Shown here: piece after piece, positions 1,591-8,716 of the stretch | Layout of the letters: each line of letters opens with the position of its first letter | Numbering within the stretch: position 1 is the first letter of the stretch | Source of the DNA: Escherichia coli | GTDB taxonomy: Bacteria > Pseudomonadota > Gammaproteobacteria > Enterobacterales > Enterobacteriaceae | DNA: 12,071 bases | Assembly: GCF_003334335.1 (NCBI RefSeq) | Contig: NZ_QOWQ01000062.1 | Strand: one strand, 5' to 3' | Notes under the pieces: generated by a model | What the model was told of the DNA's origin: nothing | What the model saw: the letters and a program-made list of their open reading frames with translations, nothing else | Databases searched by the model: none | Position numbers and translations under genes: made by a program

Positions 1591-2418
1591 TTAAACTTGG
1601 GGAAGTATTTTTTTTGCAAAATCAATAGTTTCTTTGTGGTTGGATGCAGGTATATGATTTATTTTCTTAGCATCCATAGTTCTCTTTATGATGTCAATAA
1701 CTTTGCTTTGGCCTGAGTTTGGTGATTCAGGAGTTTCAATTGTGAATAAAATGTCATCAAGTGAAAGCAGGTTTTCTTCTGCTGCTCGAGTTATTCTCAT
1801 CACCCAAGTATCACTATGCTCCATCATTTTTCCTGGTTCAGCTTGAGTGAATGCCAGAGGTTTGATGGCACATTGGATCCTGTCATGCTTCTTGGCGACC
1901 AATGGCATTGAGAACTTTGCGAAATACCCATCAATGGTTGCTTGTTTGAAGACGTTCTTCAATCCATCTATTCTATCTATACTTCGTTTTAGCTCTCTGG
2001 CTAGAACATCTTCACGGCGCTCTTTTGTGTAGTCAGAGTGGTTTACATATTTATTGTAAATGCGGGCCAGCTCTTCTTTTGGGTTTTCGCTGAGAATCAC
2101 TCTCGTAGAACTGAACTGAAAAATTGATTCTTTTTTGTTTGTAAAATATCTGAAGAATTGTGCAAGTTGTTGATGTCCAACAATCTGGGTCGCATGCATT
2201 TTTGCGAACTGTAGTTCTCTTTGTATTGAGTCTTTTGCTACAGGGAAAATACAATCATCATGGAAAAAATTCTTTACACGAGAGTCATTTCGCTTTGTGA
2301 GCTGGAAATCAAAGTAATTTTCTTTTGGCGCGCACAGAAGTACGCCTATGTTTGCGAACTCTTCAGTCTCCGCATAAGGCGCATAGCGAACGATGCTATA
2401 TAGGCATGGAGTTGTCAT
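1591..2418 (-). CDS. DUF3037-like protein of unknown function, second gene of the rex-position cassette
   Basis: ORF track 1591..2433 begins at a TTG. The first ATG (2416-2418) overlaps the upstream gene's TGA (ATGA overlap) and is preceded by GGAG. The N-terminal motif CLYSIVRYAPYAETEEFANIGVLL resembles the DUF3037 signature as I remember it. Visibly AT-rich compared with flanking phage core genes. Confidence 0.5.
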   Translation of the reverse strand: MTTPCLYSIVRYAPYAETEEFANIGVLLCAPKENYFDFQLTKRNDSRVKNFFHDDCIFPVAKDSIQRELQFAKMHATQIVGHQQLAQFFRYFTNKKESIFQFSSTRVILSENPKEELARIYNKYVNHSDYTKERREDVLARELKRSIDRIDGLKNVFKQATIDGYFAKFSMPLVAKKHDRIQCAIKPLAFTQAEPGKMMEHSDTWVMRITRAAEENLLSLDDILFTIETPESPNSGQSKVIDIIKRTMDAKKINHIPASNHKETIDFAKKILPQV

Positions 2419-3164
2419 TCTATTGCGCTCCAAAATTCATCACAATCACCTTTGTCTAGCGTAGTGCAGACAAAAGGTAAAAACTCCTCATCTACTATCC
2501 ACTCTTCTGGAATTTCGTCAAGGATAGCAGGAAGCTTGTGTAAACTGTTAACGACCCTCTGGCGGTACTCTACGCGATCCACTAAATCATATTGCCATTT
2601 GCGGTTACCAGGGCCGTACACGTGCACAGAAAAATCTTCAGGTCCAGCATTCTGATCAAATGAGAGATTATGGTCAATCAGATAATACTTATCGTTACTG
2701 ATGTCATAAAGGATGTTAACGTTTCCACCTTTGTCAGTAAGCGTTCTGTCTGCATTTAATATCCATTTATCAAAAACATAGATTAATTTTTGCTGTTCGA
2801 CTGGGATGATCGTTTCGTTTCTTGACTGCGTAAACGTTAACGCTATTGCACCGTCAATGAACAATGAAGCAAAGGCATATCCTGTACAAATTTGTTGCTG
2901 CAGATCAGGTGAGTACTCTATAAGTTCCTCTGGCACAAATACGATTTTAAAGTCAGGTAAAGGAAGGCCGATATCATTAGCCAAACACGCCGAAATGAAC
3001 TCAGCTAAGAGATTTTTCGGGGGCATTGATGGTTTTGACTTCAAAACATACAACTGCCCATCATCACATTTGCAAAGAAATGGCTGAGTGGAACCTTCAT
3101 TGATGCGACGTATTACTTCAACGACATTAGGTATTGCACTATTGCTGCTCGCTACGCACTCCAT
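2415..3164 (-). CDS. HipA-like kinase-fold protein (putative Ser/Thr kinase), first gene of the rex-position cassette
   Basis: ORF track 2415..3167 begins at a GTG; the adjacent ATG at 3162-3164 has an AAGGGT Shine-Dalgarno. The motif FDKWILNADRTLTDKGGNVNIL resembles the HipA-family catalytic loop (h-h-N-x-D-x-H/R ... N), and LIDHNLSF could be the DFG-equivalent metal-binding motif. The family call is from memory, not a search. Confidence 0.45.
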   Translation of the reverse strand: MECVASSNSAIPNVVEVIRRINEGSTQPFLCKCDDGQLYVLKSKPSMPPKNLLAEFISACLANDIGLPLPDFKIVFVPEELIEYSPDLQQQICTGYAFASLFIDGAIALTFTQSRNETIIPVEQQKLIYVFDKWILNADRTLTDKGGNVNILYDISNDKYYLIDHNLSFDQNAGPEDFSVHVYGPGNRKWQYDLVDRVEYRQRVVNSLHKLPAILDEIPEEWIVDEEFLPFVCTTLDKGDCDEFWSAIE

Positions 3165-3286
3165 CACTAACCCTTATGTGATTCAAGTCTTCCATCTCAT
3201 TACTCCGCATCTCAAAGAGCGGTTTAACACTGCGTGTTTAAAGAAAAACAACAGGCCTATTGCTGTAACTGTTTTTTAGCCTCACT

Positions 3287-5006: not shown

Positions 5007-5936
5007 ATGGCAAACACTGCTGAGATATTCAATTTTCCAGTGCCGGATGCGGCACAAAAGGAGCCGCGCGTGGCAGATCTCGATGATGGTTATACGCGCA
5101 TTGCAAATGAGTTGCTGGAAGCTGTGATGCTGGCCGGATTAACACAGCACCAGCTTCTGGTCTTCCTGGCTGTCATGCGCAAAACATATGGCTTTAATAA
5201 AAAACTGGATTGGGTGAGCAACGAGCAACTTTCCGAGTTAACCGGGATATTGCCGCACAAGTGTTCTGCTGCAAAAAGCGTTCTGGTAAAGCGTGGGATT
5301 TTTATTCAGAGTGGGCGGAATATCGGCATTAATAATGTGGTCAGTGAATGGTCAACATTACCCGAATCAGGTAAGAAAAATAAAGTTTACCTGAAAGAGG
5401 TAAATTTACCTGAATCAGGTAAGAAAAGTTTACCCAAATCAGGTAAAGGCGTTTACCCGAATCAGGTAAACACAAAAGACAAACTAACAAAAGACAATAT
5501 AAAACCTTTTTCGTCCGAGAATTCTGGCGAATCCTCTGACCAGCCAGAAAACGACTTTCCTTTGGAGAAACTGGATGCTGCAATTCAGAGCGGCAGCAAG
5601 TGGGGGACAGCAGAAGACCTGACCGCCGCAGAGTGGATGTTTGACATGGTGAAGACCATCGCGCCCTCAGCCAGAAAACCGAATTTTGCAGGGTGGGCTA
5701 ACGATATCCGCCTGATGCGTGAACGTGACGGACGTAACCACCGCGACATGTGCGTGCTGTTCCGCTGGGCATGCCAGGACAACTTCTGGTCCGGTAACGT
5801 GCTGAGCCCGGCTAAACTTCGCGACAAGTGGACCCAGCTCGAAATCAATCGTAACAAACAACAGGCTGGCGTGACAGCCGGAAAACCAAAACTCGACCTG
5901 ACAAACACTGACTGGATTTACGGGGTGGATTTATGA
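5007..5936 (+). CDS. O: Replication initiator O (mosaic: divergent N-terminal iteron-binding domain, lambda-type C-terminus)
   Basis: From the internal ATG at 5007 (GGGAGG Shine-Dalgarno): MANTAEIFNFPVP...VADLDDGYTRIANELLEA...RKTYGFNKKLDWVSNEQLSELTG aligns with lambda O. The C-terminus ...DNFWSGNVLSPAKLRDKWTQLEINRNKQQAGVTAGKPKLDLTNTDWIYGVDL is near-identical to lambda O. The track's upstream start at 4917 is probably an artefact. Confidence 0.9.
   Translation: MANTAEIFNFPVPDAAQKEPRVADLDDGYTRIANELLEAVMLAGLTQHQLLVFLAVMRKTYGFNKKLDWVSNEQLSELTGILPHKCSAAKSVLVKRGIFIQSGRNIGINNVVSEWSTLPESGKKNKVYLKEVNLPESGKKSLPKSGKGVYPNQVNTKDKLTKDNIKPFSSENSGESSDQPENDFPLEKLDAAIQSGSKWGTAEDLTAAEWMFDMVKTIAPSARKPNFAGWANDIRLMRERDGRNHRDMCVLFRWACQDNFWSGNVLSPAKLRDKWTQLEINRNKQQAGVTAGKPKLDLTNTDWIYGVDL
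5356..5510. repeat. Replication origin inside O: about five palindromic iterons followed by an AT-rich stretch
   Basis: Repeats of TTTACC-N6-AGGTAA at about 5359-5375, 5386-5403 (degenerate), 5405-5423, 5428-5446 and 5452-5470, each with internal dyad symmetry (TTACC/GGTAA), then AT-rich 5471-5510. This is the lambda-type ori architecture. Confidence 0.85.
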
Positions 5937-7003: not shown

Positions 7004-7402
7004 TTATTTGTTCTGTTTTTTCTTGCGGGTTATTCTGATTTGTTTTGATTTGATTTTTTCTGACAAAAGTAGGGAAAAAATATGTCGCAAGTACTTTCTG
7101 TCTTTACCTCCTAAATTACATTCTCTATCAAATGTTGCCATAGTTATGACCCCAGTTTTATATAGTGTTTCAGCAATTTTTCTGTAGTTTTTTTCTCGCA
7201 AAATTGAAGAGTTTTTCTTTGCTGTATTTTCAAGGCTATCTCCTTGTGGTTTAAGACTATTTGGGCCAAAAAACGTTGTGGATACTGCTGCACTTGTTGT
7301 CCGTTTTTTTTGGCCCATTTGGATAGTACTTGGGAGAGGCATGATTTTAATACGCATATAAATAACTCCTCTATCAATTGGATTTTGGGAAAATGTTAAC
7401 AT
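7004..7402 (-). CDS. Hypothetical lysine-rich protein, translationally coupled to the upstream RHH gene; alternative internal start at 7357
   Basis: 132-codon ORF in a strongly AT-rich segment, which is unlikely by chance. Its ATG (7400-7402) overlaps the TAA of the upstream RHH gene (TAATG). Basic C-terminus IKSKQIRITRKKKQNK. No family recognised. Confidence 0.55.
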   Translation of the reverse strand: MLTFSQNPIDRGVIYMRIKIMPLPSTIQMGQKKRTTSAAVSTTFFGPNSLKPQGDSLENTAKKNSSILREKNYRKIAETLYKTGVITMATFDRECNLGGKDRKYLRHIFSLLLSEKIKSKQIRITRKKKQNK

Positions 7403-7719
7403 TAATCATGATTAAGGAGTAATTTTAAATCTTCCAATAAAATTTGTTTAAACTCTTGTGTTCTATGATCGATATACAACGCAAGTTTGCTTGCATTATC
7501 TTCCAGGTCACGTATCTCTCTGTCACCTCGAATAAACCCAACTAAATTTAAACGTTTAGATAGTTCAGAACTTCCTTCTATGGCATCTTGGAGTATTTGA
7601 ATGATTTCTGAATTCATTGAGCGCCCGTTTCGTTTGGCTCGTTCAGCTATAGCTTCACGCATCCCATCGGGGAAACGGAGGTTAAACTTATCGTAGTCTT
7701 TTACTTGTTTGTCAGCCAT
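7402..7719 (-). CDS. Mnt-like ribbon-helix-helix (Arc/MetJ fold) repressor with C-terminal extension
   Basis: From the ATG at 7717-7719: MADKQVKDYDKFNLRFPDGMREAIAERAKRNGRSMNSEIIQILQDAIEG resembles the P22 Arc/Mnt N-terminal domain (FNxRxP...NGRSMNSE). The track's longer start at 7749 lacks a Shine-Dalgarno. Confidence 0.7.
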   Translation of the reverse strand: MADKQVKDYDKFNLRFPDGMREAIAERAKRNGRSMNSEIIQILQDAIEGSSELSKRLNLVGFIRGDREIRDLEDNASKLALYIDHRTQEFKQILLEDLKLLLNHD

Positions 7720-7740
7720 TGGAACCCCCAAAAAAATGAA

Positions 7741-7810
7741 TGGTGCCATATTGCCACATCAATTCAATGGTGGCATTATGGCCTCATGGTGTCATTGTGG
7801 CCTCATGAGG
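7741..7810. promoter_or_regulatory. Divergent promoter/operator region with three ~19-bp tandem repeats between the two RHH genes
   Basis: TGGTGCCATATTGCCACA (7741-7758), TGGTGGCATTATGGCCTCA (7768-7786) and TGGTGTCATTGTGGCCTCA (7787-7805), plus palindrome CCTCATGAGG (7801-7810). These are likely RHH operator sites. Confidence 0.5.
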
Positions 7811-7818
7811 TTATGTCA

Positions 7819-7977
7819 ATGGAAAAGAAAGAGGTAAAAATTACCCTTCGCTATCCGCAAAAAGTGAAGGATGAATTCAAGCGAATTGCTCAGGAGGAAG
7901 GGATGTCTGAGAACGCAGCTATTGTTCAGGCGCTTGTATGGGCATTGAAATTTAGAGCACGGATACATGCTCGCTAG
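7819..7977 (+). CDS. Arc-like ribbon-helix-helix small repressor
   Basis: From the ATG at 7819 (GAGG 8 nt upstream): MEKKEVKITLRYPQKVKDEFKRIAQEEGMSENAAIVQALVWALK has the beta-strand then two helices typical of Arc/CopG. 52 aa, against 53 for P22 Arc. Directly upstream of the antirepressor. Confidence 0.6.
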   Translation: MEKKEVKITLRYPQKVKDEFKRIAQEEGMSENAAIVQALVWALKFRARIHAR

Positions 7978-8047
7978 AAACAGCGAAGCCCCACTGGCGG
8001 CAACCTTAGGGGCTTCTATCGAAAATAACCGCGAAGGAAATATCGAC

Positions 8048-8716
8048 ATGAGTATTGTAGCAACATCAGATCTGAACTTCCAAGGTGAAGCACTAGTGCC
8101 AGTGGCAAATATTGCCGGAATATGGCTAACTTCATCCAACCTAGCAAGAGCACTGAAGTATTCGAATAGTCGCGCAGTCACGATGATTTACAACAAATAT
8201 GCTGACGAATTTTCCAGTAGTATGACTAGAGTGCTTGAAGTCAGTACCTCAGAGAATGATGTCGAGGTACTTGATCTGAGTACCTCGAAAAGTACTCGAA
8301 ACTTGAAGAAGAAAGTACGTGTTTTCTCTCTCCGCGGAGCCCATTTGATCGCCATGTTCGCCCGCACTCCTGTAGCCAAAGAGTTCCGCCGTTGGGTTCT
8401 GGATATTCTCGATCGAGAAGTTCAACAATCCCCAATCATAAAACAATTCACTGATAACGAACTTTGCACACTTGCTTGGTTATGGCGAGCAGGGGATGTG
8501 ATGTTAACCGCCTGCCAGAATGTTACTCCACTTCTTCAGGTTGCGGAGCACCGCGAAGCTGGTCGCTTTACTTCTATCGGGCAAGAATATCCCCAGATAC
8601 TACATAAGGCGCGCGAAATCCTTGCCAGAGAAACGGCACATGTAAAACTCCAGCCTTGGCAGGATAATAAGTGGAGCAGGGTGTTGCCATATTTCCGTCA
8701 GAATCTGTTGCAATAA
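8048..8716 (+). CDS. ant: Phage antirepressor (Ant; AntA/Bro-N-like N-terminal domain)
   Basis: From the internal ATG at 8048 (GAAGGAAA Shine-Dalgarno): MSIVATSDLNFQGEALVPVANIAGIWLTSSNLARALKY...KKVRVFSLRGAHLIAMFARTPVAKEFRRWVLDIL has Bro-N/AntA-like motifs. It follows the Arc-like gene as in P22 immI. Confidence 0.65.
   Translation: MSIVATSDLNFQGEALVPVANIAGIWLTSSNLARALKYSNSRAVTMIYNKYADEFSSSMTRVLEVSTSENDVEVLDLSTSKSTRNLKKKVRVFSLRGAHLIAMFARTPVAKEFRRWVLDILDREVQQSPIIKQFTDNELCTLAWLWRAGDVMLTACQNVTPLLQVAEHREAGRFTSIGQEYPQILHKAREILARETAHVKLQPWQDNKWSRVLPYFRQNLLQ

Follow-up and report, generated by a model that had tools for sequence, protein, structure and literature searches.

Background

What does a hairpin do in the short gap between a phage arc-like repressor gene and the antirepressor gene ant? 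The question is raised by a 12,071-nt stretch of Escherichia coli DNA (contig NZ_QOWQ01000062.1, hereafter the window), in which an inverted repeat is flanked by the stop codon of an arc-like gene on the left (7975-7977) and by the ant ATG equivalent to that of phage P22 on the right (8048-8050). In P22, sar RNA base-pairs with the ant mRNA and prevents its translation (PMC13397905). It shares the control of ant with Mnt and Arc in the immI region, a mobile "ant moron" (PMC2629481). An earlier note on this DNA had suggested that the hairpin could be the terminator of an analogous antisense transcript or a processing or attenuation site on the mRNA. The analysis presented here indicates that the hairpin is very probably the rho-independent terminator (stem-loop 2, SL2) of a cis-antisense RNA of approximately 70 nt, homologous to P22 sar, that would mask the ribosome-binding site of ant. 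Homology to sar, a conserved promoter geometry, two stem-loops conserved with covariation and selection on the minus strand were all observed computationally, and they are described in turn before the alternatives are weighed.

Homology to sar and a predicted minus-strand promoter

The Rfam model of sar (RF00262) matched the minus strand of the window over its full length (8046 to 7982, model positions 1-68 of 68) with 34.0 bits and E = 9.6e-4. In addition, a family covariance model (R1) was made from 26 sar-like sequences, with the window and KP12-type copies left out. Its sole strong hit in the window was located at 8047 to 7973 on the minus strand (64.7 bits, E ~1.8e-13), the next hit reaching 18.3 bits and the hairpin of the plus strand just 13.9 bits. 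The match runs antisense from the arc TAG to the ant ATG and covers the ant Shine-Dalgarno sequence GAAGGAA (8033-8039, plus strand, 8 nt before ATG 8048). The whole sar-like gene is thereby placed at 7973-8047 on the minus strand, with a predicted transcript of approximately 70-72 nt from G8047 to about position 7976.

A Psar-like sigma-70 promoter was predicted at 8054-8083 of the minus strand, inside ant codons 3-12. It is composed of a -35 hexamer TTGGAA (8083-8078), an 18-nt spacer and an extended -10 element TGcTACAAT (8062-8054), and its predicted start is G8047, one base before the ant ATG. With 9 of 12 consensus positions plus the TG, it is nearer to the consensus than the P22 promoter (GTGTTA-17-TATACT). 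In the P22 record, arc is found at 14861-15022 and ant from 15091 onwards, while sar occupies 15021-15090 of the minus strand, with its terminator at 15021-15058 and Psar at 15097-15125 (minus strand). Both phages share this layout, in which the -10 hexamer coincides with ant positions +6 to +11 and the RNA begins a single base ahead of the ant ATG and reaches to the arc stop. Alignment to the P22 sar region and a promoter search on the minus strand just downstream of the ant start had been proposed as checks in the earlier note, and both came out in favor of a sar-like RNA with a promoter of its own.

The position of this promoter is fixed among relatives. In 35 of 35 unique promoter regions, gathered without reference to the -10 hexamer, the motif TAnnnT was found exactly 3 nt before the complement of the ant ATG, and 23 of them also had the extended TG. 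Because the fixed hexamer forces it, ant codon 4 was NTA in 29 of 30 unique gene heads, vs. 17.8% of the Val/Ile/Leu codons elsewhere in ant. A purine-rich GAG/GGA/AGG motif was present before the internal ant ATG (i.e., the one at 8048) in all 37 unique contexts.

Two stem-loops in the predicted RNA

The inverted repeat is a perfect one of 8 bp, GAAGCCCC (7985-7992) and GGGGCTTC (8009-8016), with the arms 16 nt apart; the coordinates given in the earlier note were about 2 nt off. Taken alone, the repeat is weak evidence. Perfect inverted repeats with arms of 8 bp or more and loops of 3-20 nt occur 13 times in the window, compared with 3.0 ± 1.6 in dinucleotide shuffles. The 75-nt RNA of the minus strand folds into two hairpins (-25.7 kcal/mol, z = -2.93). 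The 3' one, SL2 (7985-8016, minus strand), has a lower stem of 8 bp and an upper stem of 3 bp, with a 3x3 internal loop between them and UGCC as the apical loop, and the minus-strand sequence directly after the stem is GCUGUUUCUA. The U-rich tail GCUGUUUCU (7976-7984, minus strand; GCUGUUUUUA in most relatives) is the predicted 3' end of the RNA, and the arc TAG stop (7975-7977) falls within it. On the plus strand, the sequence 3' of the hairpin is GGGGCTTCTATCGAAAA, without a T-run; the earlier note had already seen no strong one there. The 5' stem-loop (stem-loop 1, SL1; 8018-8047, minus strand) has a GUCGA/UCGAU stem and exposes the anti-Shine-Dalgarno sequence UUCCUUC in its loop, complementary to the ribosome-binding site of ant.

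Another perfect 8-bp inverted repeat, CCACTGGC (7991-7998) and GCCAGTGG (8098-8105), with 99 nt between its arms, joins the loop side of the terminator hairpin to ant codons 17-20; it could be due to chance or to long-range pairing within the mRNA.

Conservation of the probable terminator and of the 5' stem-loop

Homologues were collected as a set of 11 loci, consisting of the window and ten annotated phage loci found by BLAST (2851, GF-2, KP12, P22, ST899-OXA48phi17.1, TL-2011b, Oslo, Edno5, SPN3UB, and JEP4), and as IMG/VR contigs. The contigs retrieved with AAACAGCGAAGCCYC, which covers the tail and one stem arm, gave 43 unique junctions and carry no selection bias for SL1, the promoter or the second arm, while those retrieved with ATTGTAGCNANATCAGA, located in ant codons, are unbiased for the whole RNA. 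A whole-length MAFFT alignment of 34 sar-like RNAs (A2) misaligned the terminator's 5' arm from one subfamily to another and was not used for pair counts, which were obtained from a hairpin-only alignment (A3), with a different set re-aligned as A4. Single-linkage clustering at 80% identity, tried as a way to define independent lineages, was also discarded, as it collapsed the sequences, which are mosaics, into two giant clusters.

Among arc-ant junctions of E. coli, Salmonella, Klebsiella, and Edwardsiella phages, more than 60 unique ones carry the hairpin in an unchanged position; a lack of conservation in related modules would, according to the earlier note, have refuted its suggestion. In 32 distinct hairpins (A3), 97.1% of the pair cells were standard pairs and 5 of the 11 stem pairs had double-sided changes, with compensatory examples such as GAAGCCCC/GGGGCUUC vs. 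GAGACCCC/GGGGUCUC and CCC/GGG vs. CCUC/GAGG. None of 500 shuffles matched the observed stem values, and partners slid out of register paired in 30-56% of the cases. The wobble cells of the stem comprise 60 G-U and no A-C combinations when read on the minus strand (an A-C there would be a G-U on the plus strand), and therefore selection acts on the minus strand. Accordingly, the same 32 sequences pair at 97.1% as minus-strand RNA vs. 80.0% as plus-strand RNA, at least one minus-only wobble pair is present in each of them, and the folding energy was better on the minus strand in 39 of 41 hairpins. The tail after the stem is usually NNNNUUUUUA, in which UUA corresponds to the arc stop TAA on the opposite strand; the TAG of the window changes this to UUUCUA.

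SL1 points to the same strand. In all 54 unique variants the minus strand gave its more stable fold, with means of -7.2 vs. -3.0 kcal/mol and z-scores of -2.2 vs. -0.5 (minus vs. plus strand). The loop of the variants exposes the anti-Shine-Dalgarno motif UUCCUU or CUCC, and the stems are compensatory (GUCGA/UCGAU, GUUAG/CUGAC, AUCAG/CUGGU, AGUUC/GGACU, and GCUAG/CUAGU); these stems were taken from per-sequence folds, which are biased towards pairing, a bias that leaves the strand asymmetry unaffected. The family thus shares an SL1 with an anti-Shine-Dalgarno loop followed by an SL2 with a U-rich tail, which is UUUUU in most relatives.

BLAST homology blocks start at 7967 in several phage sets and end at 8018 (Stx phages) or 8059 (several Klebsiella phages), and the arc or ant sequences outside these blocks are unrelated (window and loci L002, L004, L006-L011). 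The sar unit (-10 hexamer through terminator, with approximately 9 nt more) therefore behaves as a mosaic block of its own or as a recombination joint that links different alleles of arc and ant.

The open ant frame across the spacer

The region had been called intercistronic in the earlier note. This holds for the interval between the arc-like stop and ATG 8048, but in GenBank and RefSeq the same interval is annotated as part of the ant coding sequence, starting from an upstream in-frame ATG (7967-7969, plus strand) that overlaps the last arc codons and is used by all annotators. The annotated ant encodes 249 amino acids, vs. 222 from ATG 8048.

Of 69 unique junctions, 60 have no stop in the ant frame across the spacer, compared with 8 and 21 for the other two frames, and the stop trinucleotides in the spacers of the 69 junctions number 11, 126, and 58 by frame. 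A start codon in the arc 3' end is joined in frame to ant in 58 of 69 (19.9 ± 3.7 in spacer shuffles). In five further junctions, a short open reading frame (ORF) from an arc-end start stops at most 12 nt from the ant ATG, and in P22 this short ORF has a TTG start and stops 5 nt past the ant ATG. Fused and short-ORF classes together amount to 63 of 69, vs. 27.9 ± 3.9 in spacer shuffles; these ORF statistics ignore the shared ancestry of the junctions. At the position equivalent to 7967, 21 ATG and 5 GTG were counted among 52 unique arc tails. The arc codon that provides the "AT" of the start was AAT or CAT in 25 cases and AAC or CAC in none, while the rest of arc has 60 AAT, 42 AAC, 11 CAT and 2 CAC codons, and variants in which this codon changed from N to S or from N to G retain GTG. 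A Shine-Dalgarno-like 4-mer was found before the upstream start in 23 of 34 contexts, vs. a background of 15%.

Other observations speak against a translated spacer. Substitutions at codon positions 1/2/3, counted along the edges of a minimum-spanning tree, were 52/42/51 in the spacer, with no codon-position bias, compared with 88/33/310 in ant codons 6-55 and 54/22/256 in the arc 3' end. (A column-variability codon test on same-length junctions was replaced by these tree-edge counts, as every column varies in such diverged, mosaic sequences.) About nine junctions have in-frame stops, P22 lacks the fusion, the junctions share ancestry, and the Shine-Dalgarno sequence before the upstream ATG is weak in the window and in its arc family. 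Translation of the arc-ant spacer in most modules, either as an arc-coupled leader or as an N-terminal extension with a second ant start, is thus a tentative idea to which we give somewhat less than even chances. The same caution applies to its corollary, by which 70 bp might be used twice, for an antisense RNA on one strand and for a leader without amino-acid constraint on the other. Should it be true, the sar-like RNA would be flanked by two ant starts of the same frame, and it could control arc-coupled translation or determine how much long Ant is made relative to short Ant, much as P22 sas does for sieB/esc.

Weighing the alternatives

Several observations weigh against a sar-like terminator in the window. 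The Rfam score of 34.0 bits is below the gathering cut-off of 43, the -35 hexamer has only a 4/6 match, the lower stem of the window copy lacks a G-U pair, its U-run is interrupted (UUUCU), a generic terminator scan did not report the hairpin, and the region is annotated as ant coding sequence. The 43-bit cut-off is an operational threshold of a model centered on P22, and the scores of related arc-ant loci form a continuum across it: 97.8 bits in P22, 48 in SPN3UB, 44.8 in TL-2011b, 34.8 in KP12, 34.0 in the window, 32.1 in GF-2, 30.2 in Edno5, 29.5 in 2851, and 27.1 in ST899. Oslo and JEP4 possess the promoter and the two stem-loops, yet RF00262 had no hit in them. The cut-off is thus reached in 3 of the 11 loci (P22, SPN3UB, and TL-2011b), with 8 below it, the window included. 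SPN3UB bridges the window and P22, as its SL1 begins with the same 17 nt as that of the window and its SL2 is almost the same as the P22 one. The sar family is much broader than the curated model, which is too narrow for it. The window RNA appears to be an unannotated, divergent relative of sar, having all the structural and syntenic features that were tested apart from an Rfam score above the cut-off.

As the lower stem has no G-U pair, the strand call for the window copy relies on the related copies and on a single U-G pair of the upper stem, with energies of -17.6 (minus) vs. -16.3 kcal/mol (plus). The C in the U-run is present because the arc-like gene ends with TAG and not with the TAA of most relatives, and some read-through into arc might occur; a close relative (L152) has TAA as its arc stop, unlike the window. 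The scan missed the hairpin because it allows loops of at most 8 nt (and asks for at least 5 T in 8), and its silence is no evidence against a terminator, since the U-run of the P22 sar terminator is even shorter.

Chance alone would yield approximately 3 perfect 8-bp, short-loop inverted repeats at the size and composition of the window. A functionless repeat is nevertheless next to impossible, since the unique junctions keep the hairpin in position, with compensatory changes, and the covariance models match over the full length. It could also be argued that the hairpin is merely ant coding sequence from ATG 7967, an inverted repeat without a role at the RNA level, given that GenBank and PGAP call ant from there, that the frame is mostly open from a conserved start codon and that this start often has a Shine-Dalgarno-like motif. 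However, the spacer evolves without codon-position bias, the frame is closed in some junctions (P22 among them), and the internal ATG retains its own Shine-Dalgarno motif in all contexts. Moreover, the stem changes are compensatory as pairs yet radical in amino acids (e.g., P to S paired with G to E), and the G-U asymmetry indicates selection on the opposite strand. We therefore regard a purely coding origin as highly improbable; the spacer may well be translated in addition to being the target of the antisense RNA, with which such translation is compatible and to which it is no alternative, but this cannot explain the hairpin.

The other proposal of the earlier note, an attenuator or processing site, requires the hairpin to act in the arc-ant mRNA of the plus strand, as a partial terminator or attenuator or as an RNase or stability element. 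The window hairpin does form on that strand too, it lies between two genes whose ratio likely matters, and a region paired with an antisense RNA would presumably be a substrate of RNase III. Against this, there is no T-run 3' of position 8016, as a terminator would have, the stem pairs far less well in plus-strand form, with all 60 wobble cells being valid on the minus strand only, the plus-strand hairpins are weaker in all but two of the 41 compared, by up to ~10 kcal/mol, and the family model barely recognizes the plus-strand hairpin of the window. A plus-strand role was thus not borne out and is very unlikely, while the terminator of a sar-like antisense RNA, which the earlier note had put forward beside it, gained support from the RF00262 match, the promoter at the Psar position and the minus-strand covariation.

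Proposed mode of action

By analogy with P22, the sar-like RNA would be made, would end at its tail and would repress the translation of ant. Transcription would proceed leftward from the extended -10 promoter in ant codons 3-12, starting at about G8047. The RNA would then fold into the 5' stem-loop with its anti-Shine-Dalgarno loop and, 3' of it, the hairpin at 7985-8016, and its own 3' end would lie in the tail over the arc stop. As it is perfectly complementary to the translation-initiation region of ant (7976-8047), pairing with the ant mRNA is expected, and this probably begins with a loop-loop contact at the Shine-Dalgarno sequence. The pairing would block ribosome binding and keep the synthesis of the antirepressor low. 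Such a block would also hold on transcripts that are beyond the reach of Arc/Mnt repression at Pant (e.g., read-through from PR), and the RNA may be especially useful there because the cassette lies in the PR operon (ren/ninB).

The phage and its immI-like cassette

The window corresponds to Escherichia phage PhiR5_1 (PV340545.1), a lambda-like phage, at 100% identity. The module has the order mnt-like, arc-like, ant and is flanked by ren and ninB; near-identical copies were found in just 6 of 5,426 complete E. coli genomes. The mnt-like gene (7402-7719, minus strand), divergent from arc and annotated as a coding sequence in PhiR5_1, encodes a repressor of the Arc family (ribbon-helix-helix). 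The arc-like gene (7819-7977, plus strand; ATG 7819, TAG 7975-7977) is present in the ORF list with 52 amino acids, and homologous arc genes were found in GF-2 and further phages. RefSeq labels both small genes "Arc family DNA-binding protein", in the case of the mnt-like one at an identical prophage gene. The start of ant (8048-8716, plus strand, 222 amino acids) was aligned to the P22 ant start, and the protein has the Pfam domains Bro-N (PF02498, 9e-9) and P22_AR_C (PF10548, 7.6e-15). A P22-type immI module is recognizable from the two ribbon-helix-helix genes, mnt-like and arc-like in divergent orientation, and from the ant next to them, which encodes the C-terminal domain of P22 Ant. Two overlapping perfect 8-bp inverted repeats are located in ant at 8243-8288 (AGTACCTC...GAGGTACT and TCGAGGTA...TACCTCGA), and the AGTACCTC motif is repeated in the linker that joins the Bro-N and P22_AR_C domains.

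The divergent control region in the gap between the mnt-like and arc-like genes (7734-7810) contains operator-like repeats (families D1, D2, and I2), namely three direct copies of approximately 19 nt (ATGGTGGCATTATGGCCTC and variants) and one imperfect 18-nt inverted repeat. These are probably Arc/Mnt-type operators over a Pant-like promoter that the promoter scan placed at 7751-7779 of the plus strand (TTGCCA-17-CATTAT with TG).

The site of the cassette differs between phages: it is the nin region (ren/ninB) here, the tail genes in Stx phage 2851, and the gap between gene 16/sieA and the tailspike in P22. The mnt/arc/sar/ant cassette is thus a mobile "moron" that lands in different operons. 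Elsewhere in the window, HipA toxin and "HipD antitoxin" genes are annotated in PhiR5_1 between kil and cI (1591-3167, minus strand); this toxin-antitoxin or kinase pair occupies the place of lambda N/rexAB, and the PhiR5_1 annotation has no N gene. The O replication gene contains iteron-like repeats at 5359-5472 (TCAGGTAA / TTACCTGA and similar), which are probably the replication origin, and an Rfam match to rliD of Listeria at the same positions (16 bits, E = 0.74) was dismissed as noise over these repeats.

Significance and comparison with known systems

Although modest in scale, the overall finding indicates that the mechanism of P22 sar is no peculiarity of P22 but a conserved mobile part of the arc-ant "immI" cassettes, which are hosted by lambdoid and other temperate phages of E. 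coli, Salmonella, Klebsiella, and Edwardsiella, Stx phages included. Annotation pipelines overwrite the sar-like RNA with an extended ant coding sequence. For PhiR5_1, a third, post-transcriptional lock on the antirepressor is predicted, with a bearing on prophage induction and on anti-immunity among co-resident prophages. A lock of this type is also predicted for many further temperate phages, those carrying Stx among them. The comparative set is also a clean example of how the asymmetry between G-U and A-C can assign a conserved hairpin to a strand, and the open frame with a conserved start over an antisense target would, if true, be a new twist on a classic system.

The two-start idea for ant has a parallel in P22 sas, which, as reportedly described by Ranade and Poteete in 1993, is a small cis-antisense RNA over a region with two in-frame translation starts. 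Reviews state that this RNA (antisense to sieB/esc) "regulates alternative translation". The likeness bears only on the two-start idea, as there is no sequence kinship and the target gene is another one. In the immI region of P1 (icd-ant), the c4 RNA of P1/P7 is a small RNA that silences an antirepressor by masking its ribosome-binding site. In contrast to the RNA described here, c4 is processed from the transcript of its own target and acts through short complementary boxes, being neither convergent nor fully complementary, and no Rfam match to c4 was found in the window. Lambda OOP and the countertranscripts of plasmids (CopA, ctRNA) are likewise short, highly structured cis-antisense RNAs that end in an intrinsic terminator and pair loop-first. 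They have other targets and contexts and are not homologous, and OOP acts at the 3' end of cII, where it promotes mRNA decay; the homologous region of phage 2851 had a weak match to ctRNA_pGA1 (27.8 bits, below the cut-off).

The closest relative is P22 sar itself, from which the predicted window copy differs in several respects. The SL1 sequences are unrelated (GUCGAUAUUUCC... vs. GUUGGUUUUUCUCC...), the upper stem of the terminator is broken in the window by the 3x3 internal loop, and the spacer has 70 nt and is in frame with ant from the upstream ATG, whereas that of P22 has 68 nt and an in-frame TAA. The module is located in the nin region of a lambda-like phage and not in the late-region "ant moron". 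Common to both are the antisense position, the place of the promoter (an extended -10 at ant +6 to +11), the length of approximately 70 nt, the two stem-loops with an anti-Shine-Dalgarno sequence in the first loop, the terminator stem GAAGCCC.../...GGGCUUC and the module itself, with mnt-like and arc-like genes and an ant with the P22_AR_C domain.

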